NCBI GenBank assembly: GCA_035559815.1
Contig: DATMAT010000057.1
Location: 6,359 to 70,358, forward strand
DNA: 64,000 bases
Source of the DNA: Thermodesulfobacteriota bacterium
GTDB lineage: Bacteria > Desulfobacterota_D > UBA1144 > Nemesobacterales > CSP1-2
Reading direction: 5' to 3'
In this document: piece by piece, positions 34,119 through 34,925 of the stretch
How positions within the stretch are numbered: the first letter of the stretch is position 1
Layout of the letters: every line of letters begins with the position of its first letter
The notes under the pieces: generated by a model
What the model saw: only the letters and a program-made list of their open reading frames with translations
Databases searched by the model: none
What the model was told of the DNA's origin: nothing
Translations under genes and position numbers: made by a program

Positions 34119-34925
34119 TCACCGGTCGTAGTAAGGTGACATCTTTGTAACCAAGAACGGAAACTCCGACCACAAAAGCGCAATGGCACCTGTTACAAAT
34201 GGGGCTGCAGCACTAGTTTCTCCAAATGTGAGCGACTTGCCATTAGCCCCGAGGCTGGTAATGTTGTCGCCGGGAGCGCTTAGACCTCGCTTTCCGATAG
34301 AACTTCCTAGGTTCGAGTAGTTAATCGGTCTACCTTGAAGGTCGCAGGCAACAACCGGAATAACCCACGTGTGACCGGTAACGGCAGAACTTCCGATAGT
34401 CCCCTGATTCCCAGCCGCCGCAACAACAATAACACCACCCCTTGCAGCATAATCTAGAGCCTTTTCTAATTCGCGCTCACCTTTAGATGATGGTTGTGCA
34501 AGTGCAGCGCTTAGGTTTATTACACGCGCACCTGCATCAATGGTCTCTATGATTGCCCCTGCAAGCTCCTCTGGGGTTGCGCTTGGCAGGGATTTAGCGG
34601 GCTCACCCCAGGTCTGTCTGTTTCCCGATGCCCTCTCTGAAAAAATGGGACGTACAAGCAGTGTGCAATCAGGACAGATTGCCGGAGCTAGAGAACCCCT
34701 CCTACCGCACAAGATGCCTGCCACAAACGTCCCATGCATACAGGCAGCACTGCTTGCTACGGTGTATGTCCCATCCAGTTTTCCAGGAACCTCGCGGATA
34801 TTTTCACCTGTAAGGCTGGGATGGTTAATTATGATGGGGCCATCTATTAACCCAACTGTAATTTCGGGTCTACCGCTTGTGAGTTCCATCAATGCTGTGA
34901 GCTTGACCACATCCAAAGGATTCAT
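34119..34925 (-). CDS. S8 subtilisin-like serine peptidase 1 (cytoplasmic, no signal or pro-domain; C-terminally truncated relative to its paralogue)
   Basis: The catalytic triad context is VGLIDGP (Asp), HGTFVAGIL (His), GTSAAAPFVTGAIALL (Ser). It ends ...LLWSEFP+FLVTKMSPYYDR, while the paralogue continues ...LLWSEFPKATGADMKV... for about 45 more residues. Confidence 0.85.
   Translation of the reverse strand: MNPLDVVKLTALMELTSGRPEITVGLIDGPIIINHPSLTGENIREVPGKLDGTYTVASSAACMHGTFVAGILCGRRGSLAPAICPDCTLLVRPIFSERASGNRQTWGEPAKSLPSATPEELAGAIIETIDAGARVINLSAALAQPSSKGERELEKALDYAARGGVIVVAAAGNQGTIGSSAVTGHTWVIPVVACDLQGRPINYSNLGSSIGKRGLSAPGDNITSLGANGKSLTFGETSAAAPFVTGAIALLWSEFPFLVTKMSPYYDR

Follow-up and report, generated by a model that had tools for sequence, protein, structure and literature searches.

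We analyzed a 64,000-nucleotide (nt) window, the whole stretch of DNA taken from contig DATMAT010000057.1 (assembly GCA_035559815.1) of a Thermodesulfobacteriota metagenome-assembled genome (MAG), in which a 49-bp direct repeat lies at the boundaries of 2 groups of genes encoding putative leader-bearing precursor proteins. The 2 copies, at 34119-34167 and 40062-40110, are identical at 43 of 49 nt (88%; repeat family D10; blastn E 3.8e-11 in a local search space). The genes of the region are all on the minus strand, where each copy encodes EFPFLVTKMSPYYDR with a stop codon after it; within about 20-27 nt there follows a gene whose product starts with M..PGF(T/K)AE.SL. The original prediction of an approximately 85% identical repeat that forms the same tail at the 3' end of the gene just upstream of a precursor was borne out, with its coordinates off by 1-2 nt only: one copy ends the gene of an S8 peptidase (peptidase 1) ahead of the precursor at 33621-34103, and the other ends a gene encoding 331 amino acids (aa) ahead of the precursor at 39658-40041. 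The 331-aa product carries the C-terminal domain of unknown function (DUF) of the cyanobactin protein PatG, and we refer to its gene as the DUF gene. The principal features, including the open reading frame (ORF) of peptidase 1, are as follows.

40062-41057, minus strand: standalone PatG_D + PatG_C protein of 331 aa (PF18047, 1.4e-32; PF18065, 5.5e-35), matching the PatG DUF structure 4UVQ, with relatives in 80 loci
40062-40110, minus strand: T1, native 3' end of the intact DUF gene, within the PatG_C match (residues 219-328 to profile positions 3-115 of 115), with a tail conserved in 85 full-length homologues
34119-34925, minus strand: peptidase 1, predicted truncated S8 (PatA-like) peptidase of 268 aa fused in frame to a DUF stub; the PF00082 match stops at profile position 259 of 288
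34119-34167, minus strand: T3, putative 15-codon stub (EFPFLVTKMSPYYDR plus stop) left from a second PatG_C-type gene and now closing the peptidase 1 ORF; 43 of 49 nt shared with T1, encoding the family-consensus peptide
34159-34167, minus strand: fusion junction, a 9-nt overlap GGAGTTTCC (minus strand) common to the peptidase (S-E-F-P) and the DUF gene (E-E-F-P), placed by the limits of blastn homology
36602-36648, minus strand: T2, putative third, decayed DUF stub (DLAEKFLFLVAKMSP followed by a stop) without an ORF upstream, 70% identical to T1 (repeat family D12)
41599-42510, minus strand: peptidase 2, full-length PatA-like S8 peptidase (PF00082), with PagA/PatA (4H6W/4H6V, E ~1e-30) as best solved relatives and homologues aligning to residues ~297-303

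The 331-aa protein scored 112.9 bits against PF18047 (gathering cut-off 27) and 120.3 bits against PF18065 (cut-off 25.9), and the PatG_C match reached the last profile position (115 of 115) at residue 328 of 331. Scanning with one genome per species, we identified relatives of this protein in 80 loci at 54-79% identity, with hosts including Acidobacteriota, Nitrosospira, Brocadia, cyanobacteria, Chloroflexota, Methanoperedens, Nitrososphaerales, and others. The tail was near-invariant across 85 distinct full-length DUF genes, with F318, P319, and L321 conserved in 100%, most other tail positions in 85-99%, and Met325 in 70%, and the peptide encoded by T1 and T3 is the consensus tail of the family. 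Because the profile match runs to its last position and the tail is near-invariant in homologues, the 49-bp segment is the ordinary 3' end of a standalone PatG_D/PatG_C ("cyanobactin DUF") gene, comprising its final 15 codons and the stop.

T3 was 83-84% identical to tails in other genomes, about as near as it is to T1 (88%), which lies 6 kb away; this is what is expected of a conserved coding end and not of a locus-specific repeat. The discrete "junction element" that had been proposed thus gives way to the native end of a gene conserved as protein. The 6 differences between T1 and T3 (TTG/CTG, TCA/TCG, CCT/CCG, TAC/TAT twice, and GAC/GAT) are all synonymous, with no nonsynonymous difference. 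Random substitutions are mostly nonsynonymous, and such an all-synonymous set is unlikely by chance, so that T3 would have been under protein-level selection in an intact DUF gene for most of the divergence. T3 is itself not a functional DUF gene, as 15 codons are left and the tblastn match covers query residues 317-331 only.

Peptidase 1 and peptidase 2 could be aligned without gaps at 73% identity up to ...LLWSEFP, with no similarity beyond. Past this point peptidase 2 has 42 further residues, whereas peptidase 1 has the shared tail. Peptidase 1 had been predicted to be broken exactly where the shared segment starts, which holds, and peptidase 2 to continue for about 45 residues, which is slightly too many. 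In blastn comparisons, peptidase homology ended at 34159/34158 and DUF-tail homology began at 34167/34166, giving an overlap of 9 nt. The overlap is present in both genes because both encode E-F-P there; EFP was found at the junction position in 87 of 120 peptidases, and F318 and P319 are invariant in the DUF family. Relative to the peptidase 2 module, or to the related locus L081, the sequence missing at peptidase 1 amounts to ~1.4-1.6 kb, comprising 42 peptidase codons, a small gene, and ~316 DUF codons.

We searched for the tail among the relatives of peptidase 1, defined as the 119 best matches in a collection of 5.8 billion proteins (listed lengths 263-381 aa). None of the 119 carried it, only peptidase 1 itself, and the proposed check on whether relatives are full length came out accordingly: peptidase 2 and every relative read or aligned have at least 40 residues beyond the point where peptidase 1 stops. 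All of these relatives, including the closest (75-82% identity), run past EFP into ...(N/S)A(T/N)A..VK..VTQ....RR.TVVPPLLDAW.AYQ. Further, 241 million metagenome records were scanned with the degenerate pattern TGGNNNGARTTYCCNTTYYTNGTNNNNAAR for DNA encoding W-x-E-F-P-F-L-V-x-K, and none of the 22 matches was in a peptidase. The peptidase-tail fusion arose once and does not represent a conserved architecture.

Peptidase 1 also deviates at 4 native positions that are at least 95% conserved (C54Y, I182V, R184G, and G236E). The last lies 2 residues before the catalytic Ser238, at the Gly of the G-T-S-x-A-x-P motif, which is Gly in 119 of 120 homologues. The Asp/His/Ser triad is kept, the columns D28, H64, and S238 (aligned peptidase 2 numbering) being invariant. 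Residues 22-265 of peptidase 2 aligned to residues 26-248 of subtilisin BPN', which places the end of the native peptidase 1 sequence near BPN' residue 239. Without the part aligned to ~BPN' 240-275, peptidase 1 presumably misses the C-terminal helices of the subtilisin fold, and the enzyme is probably inactive. For peptidase 2, AlphaFold2 with an alignment of 26 closely homologous sequences gave a model whose mean predicted local distance difference test score was 48; it was set aside, and the lost elements were mapped through the alignments to PatA/PagA and subtilisin BPN'. Sigma-70-like promoter matches were found upstream of peptidase 1 (35006-35035, minus strand, 10/12) and of peptidase 2 (42684-42713, minus strand, 11/12), with total matches not above those in shuffled sequence. 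The truncated gene may persist partly through transcription supplied to the 2 precursors behind it, P8 and P9.

The 2 peptidases belong to 2 modules, of which the remaining genes are listed below; each precursor gene is preceded by its own GGAGG-type ribosome-binding site (RBS) and ATG.

41200-41427, minus strand: 75-aa CxxC small protein between peptidase and DUF gene, absent from the peptidase 1 module; tblastn matches in this position in almost every related locus, no Pfam family
36682-40041, minus strand: 7 precursor genes of the peptidase 2 module with the leader M..PGFTAE.SLY.. and unrelated Cys-rich cores, recognized as ORFs with the leader motif and by leader/RBS repeat families D3-D6
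35269-36539, minus strand: 4 small genes between T2 and peptidase 1, an inserted cassette whose first gene (36246-36539) is an AF2212-like antitoxin (PF01954, 6.5e-12)
33180-34103, minus strand: 2 precursor genes 3' of T3, at 33621-34103 (P8, phospholipase A2-like core) and 33180-33536 (P9), recognized as ORFs with the leader

The order of peptidase, 75-aa gene, DUF gene, and precursors was kept in ~70 of 80 loci; in these the S8 peptidase lies directly upstream of the DUF gene and aligns to peptidase 2 through residues ~297-303, and one to several leader-bearing ORFs follow downstream. In syntenic relatives, a single module lies between the flanks, with radical-SAM and luciferase-like genes followed by peptidase, small gene, DUF gene, precursors, and a convergent AMP-binding gene. 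Between those flanks, the window holds peptidase 2 with its small gene, DUF gene, and 7 precursors, then T2, the 4 small genes, and finally the peptidase 1-tail fusion with 2 precursors. The 4-gene cassette is absent in the single-module relatives L081 and L086. Its other 3 genes had no Pfam or PADLOC match, and PADLOC returned no matches for the small genes and the DUF gene. We infer that P8 and P9 are served in trans by the intact module.

Between peptidase 1 and peptidase 2 the synonymous divergence (dS) was 1.6 and the ratio of nonsynonymous to synonymous divergence (omega) was 0.10. Each has nearer relatives elsewhere (peptidase 1, 82%; peptidase 2, 87.5%), as against their mutual identity of 73%. 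Because of this dS and these closer outside relatives, the 2 modules are best regarded as anciently diverged paralogues or xenologues, and the break in peptidase 1 as recent, which would account for the low omega and the lack of an internal stop still seen there. A recent in-situ tandem duplication of the modules is ruled out by the same values.

Fragments of the DUF gene recur in related loci. A sensitive tblastn search identified partial DUF matches in 11 further loci, all of them 3' ends (query ends 327-331, starts 226-317), and weaker stubs were found in L081, L087, and L089 and probably in L086. In total, at least 14 related loci have 3' stubs, mostly just upstream of a precursor, and the suggested search for the element at array boundaries in related genomes was thus positive. 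The distance to the precursor ATG was 13-33 nt in 12 of 15 stubs, the same spacing as after intact genes (median 33, mode 27). Identity between stub and resident DUF gene ranged from 98% (L037) to 65% (L001), with differences often rich in synonymous changes, as in L034 (~17 synonymous over ~85 otherwise nearly identical residues). L001 and L081 are 90-95% identical on either side of a clean 220-nt indel that removed the 5' part of their common stub. L089 has a P8 orthologue with 69% aa identity and the AMP-binding flank in common, and ahead of it lies a stub in decay that covers DUF codons ~304-331, with a 1-nt frameshift and the stop lost. As a stub precedes P8 in both L089 and the window, the junction of a DUF end with P8 is likely to be old and to have been truncated independently in the 2 lineages. 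The stubs mark boundaries of stacked modules that lost redundant enzyme genes by deletion. Two complete DUF genes were found in some loci, with 2 tandem small-gene/DUF/precursor units in L005 (5230-8790) and a second copy on the opposite strand in L008 (5317-6237); these are possible intermediates of module stacking.

T2 lies directly past the stop of the seventh and last precursor of the 7-gene array. The segment at 36515-36617 of the window was 82% identical over 103 nt to positions 8459-8560 of L084, where it comprises the end of a full-length DUF gene (...FLVTEMSS and a stop) and the start of a toxin-antitoxin (TA) cassette. Because of this match to a DUF-end/TA junction, T2 is most readily explained as the remnant of another DUF gene, in which insertion of a TA cassette would have replaced the last 4 codons before the DUF body was lost. 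In both the L084 gene and the T2 relic, the same TA-cassette junction stands in place of the last 4 DUF codons. TA genes (AF2212-like, PIN, and MazE) were found repeatedly inside these loci.

Taken together, we consider it probable, at roughly 80%, that the repeat is a rearrangement scar, a DUF 3' stub fused to peptidase 1 through loss of ~1.4-1.6 kb, and not a regulatory or mobile element. The recombination junction of the original prediction would in this sense stand, the site being the start of a precursor subcluster. Illegitimate recombination in the second module would have joined peptidase codon ~256 to DUF codon ~317, in the simplest form by an intramolecular deletion at the 9-nt overlap that removed the peptidase C-terminus, the small gene, and nearly the whole DUF gene. 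As the join fell in frame, the ORF ends at the DUF stop and the native spacing from stop through RBS to ATG of the next precursor is preserved, the stub itself being presumably functionless. More generally, 3' stubs would arise repeatedly when modules stack and then shed redundant enzyme genes: whole modules may become juxtaposed by duplication or transfer, deletions may leave a DUF end abutting a retained precursor, and the stubs would then erode.

Microhomology-mediated deletion giving an in-frame fusion or a pseudogene is a general form of bacterial illegitimate recombination. The likeness here lies in at most 9 nt of shared sequence placed precisely where two otherwise unrelated coding sequences meet, the interval between them having been lost. 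The peculiarity is that the microhomology stems from the E-F-P motif conserved in both protein families, for which reason the event could recur; no recurrence was found.

Several points weigh against this reading. An intact module with a peptidase 1 orthologue, small gene, DUF gene, and P8 was not found among the relatives, the closest peptidase being 80-82% identical, so that the state before the deletion is deduced and not observed. Following the homologues of P8 in search of such an ancestor led to L089-L091, with the decaying stub ahead of the P8 orthologue in L089 and no intact module. An insertion or a Campbell-type integration could equally account for the join as its end-joint; a circularised module integrating by tail recombination, for example, could have produced it and would explain T2 too. 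The in-frame join may have arisen by chance (1 in 3) or have been selected. Neither a frameshift nor an internal stop interrupts peptidase 1, whose omega (0.08-0.13) is as low as in relatives, and given this open frame and low omega the fusion protein may retain a residual function.

The more specific claim that the fusion is a functional neo-protein, with the DUF C-terminal peptide as a useful interaction motif, appears very improbable. It would draw on the in-frame join, the consensus tail without nonsynonymous change, and the low omega and intact triad of the native part; yet the fusion is unique among the 119 homologues and the metagenome records scanned, the segment aligned to ~BPN' 240-275 is gone, the otherwise invariant Gly of the GTS motif is replaced, and a recent break also predicts low omega over a dS above 1. 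We give similarly little credence to a regulatory reading, as the original prediction had also offered, in which the coding 3' ends would contain a cis-acting DNA or RNA element (a promoter, attenuator, or processing site) on which expression of the precursor downstream depends. The segment does lie constantly ~25-30 nt upstream of a precursor start, and T1 (z -2.3) and weakly L086 (z -1.6) folded better than shuffled sequences, but T3, T2, and L081 did not (z +1.0, +0.8, and 0.0), and a hairpin or attenuator was rejected, the left arm being replaced by peptidase sequence in T3. Synonymous sites in the tail were as variable as in the rest of the gene, with a normalised synonymous-codon entropy over 85 intact genes of 0.818 for codons 316-331 and 0.829 elsewhere (Mann-Whitney p=0.86). 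A promoter in the tail was likewise rejected, as TATTAT (codons Y-Y-D), the only -10-like hexamer of T1, has no acceptable -35 and is abolished by the synonymous differences, reading TACTAC in T3. No sigma-70-like promoter or intrinsic-terminator-like site was identified in the tails on the coding (minus) strand, Rfam gave nothing relevant (2 sub-threshold chance matches, both elsewhere), and most precursors have no stub. As for mobile elements, no hairpin or inverted repeat of an insertion sequence end, attC, or att-type architecture was supported at T3 (z +1.0), and no transposase or integrase families were identified among the genes scanned between 31.4 and 44.9 kb. A chimera of metagenome assembly, for which the MAG origin of the contig and the likeness of the 2 modules could speak, is scarcely credible, since the 9-nt overlap at the join is far under assembler k-mer sizes, both flanks are syntenic with relatives, and an independent Logan contig (SRR7882662_116792, locus L114) is 100% identical to window positions 31119-37925 (6.8 kb), spanning both the fusion junction and T2.

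It is also conceivable, if unlikely, that DUF 3' stubs act as functional homology anchors by which recombination with an intact tail swaps or deletes precursor cassettes or brings them next to the DUF gene. Such a role would suit their recurrence (14 loci or more, invariably the 3' end, mostly directly upstream of a precursor), their varying retained lengths, as in orphan cdiA-CT fragments (PMC3150448), and the match of T2 and its TA cassette to the DUF-end/TA junction in L084, which suggests that blocks enter at the tail. However, expression would not require recombination, given an RBS and ATG in front of each precursor; frameshifts, stops, and 5' erosion are seen in decaying stubs; the longest identical stretch common to T1 and T3 is no more than 16 bases; and a stub stands before at most ~1/8 of the non-first precursors (rough count; ~10 stub-preceded among 151 leader-bearing ORFs in 80 loci). 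The sole strain-level swap seen, between L086 and L087, breaks just after the leader-coding region and not at a tail. By analogy with orphan toxin modules, the stubs might more broadly be kept as anchors, or within a minimal "stub + RBS + precursor" cassette, for stacking, swapping, and pruning hypervariable Cys-rich precursors between genomes, here for leader-bearing secreted proteins, which we regard as a long shot.

Loci for contact-dependent growth inhibition (CDI) and Rhs provide the closest parallel for the stubs, with orphan cdiA-CT/cdiI and rhs-CT modules in which variable-length fragments of the conserved upstream gene stand before variable cassettes behind the intact gene (PMC3150448). 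DUF fragments of variable length likewise stand directly upstream of variable precursor cassettes. The orphan toxins, however, generally lack translation initiation signals and share an ORF with the conserved fragment, whereas the DUF stub is a dead gene end apart from the precursors, which have their own signals; no tail-mediated exchange was seen in these loci.

Compared with the PatA/PatG C-terminal DUF (PF18047 + PF18065; 4UVQ), the 331-aa protein matches both domains and the structure, and the 49-bp segment encodes the PatG_C end. The window DUF differs in being a separate gene, not fused to a protease, and in being accompanied by the 75-aa CxxC protein and by arrays of long (60-310 aa) Cys-rich precursors, and its copy behind peptidase 1 is a mere 15-codon vestige. 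No heterocyclase- or macrocyclase-like gene was identified among the ORFs read and scanned at ~31.4-45 kb. Solved N-terminal cyanobactin proteases of the PatA/PagA type (S8; 4H6V, 4H6W, and 3ZXX) include the closest solved relatives of peptidase 2, with Asp, His, and Ser columns invariant. The window peptidases score far below the TIGR03895 cut-off (103.2 and 113.5 bits versus 421), and peptidase 1 additionally lacks the last 42 residues and carries G236E. On these profile scores, the peptidases would be related to, and not members of, the PatA/PatG cyanobactin maturation proteases (TIGR03895).

The module of PatA-like S8 peptidase, 75-aa CxxC protein, standalone PatG_D/PatG_C protein, and precursor array (33180-42510, minus strand, in the window; loci L001-L091) was identified in at least 80 species from many bacterial and archaeal phyla. 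The precursors have a leader of ~20 aa (M..MPGFTAE.SLYKT) and unrelated Cys-rich cores, 60-310 aa, and had no Pfam or NCBIfam family match. The ...AE(A/V)S of the leader is similar to what we take to be the PatA cleavage site, G(L/V)E(A/P)S. Behind its leader, P8 (33621-34103, minus strand) has a phospholipase A2-like core (YGNYCGPG...CREHDLCY; PF00068 at 28 bits, under the cut-off) with 320 homologues, mostly annotated PF00068, which suggests that the "precursors" include enzymes or toxins and not small peptides alone. P6 (37030-37995, minus strand, 321 aa) consists of many short Cys-rich, CCPxGxxC-like repeats (DNA repeat families D7-D9 and D11), with partial relatives in L024, L048, L051, L089, and L090. 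The contigs L086 and L087 are 99.75% identical over 8.1 kb and become unrelated from ~45 nt into a precursor gene (L086 ~9034-9080; L087 ~8065-8110), the leader MNMPGFTAEASLY being the same and the cores different. Given an identical leader with different cores, the leader-coding region appears to be a strain-level recombination point for core swapping. We searched the literature for the leader motif and the Pfam ids and found nothing relevant, and this widespread system appears to be undescribed in the literature searched.

The feature is real, well delimited, and ordinary in its explanation, a vestigial gene end and a microhomology-mediated fusion pseudogene bordering a second, partly deleted module. 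Annotations should give peptidase 1 as a truncated fusion or a pseudogene, the repeat should be listed as neither a regulatory nor a mobile element, and P8 and P9 should be regarded as dependent on the intact module. The value of the finding is mainly corrective, and the surrounding peptidase/CxxC/DUF/precursor system is the more interesting object. For this system, the stubs serve as markers of locus growth by stacking modules of different ancestry followed by loss of redundant enzyme genes, and strain-level variation is located at the conserved leader.

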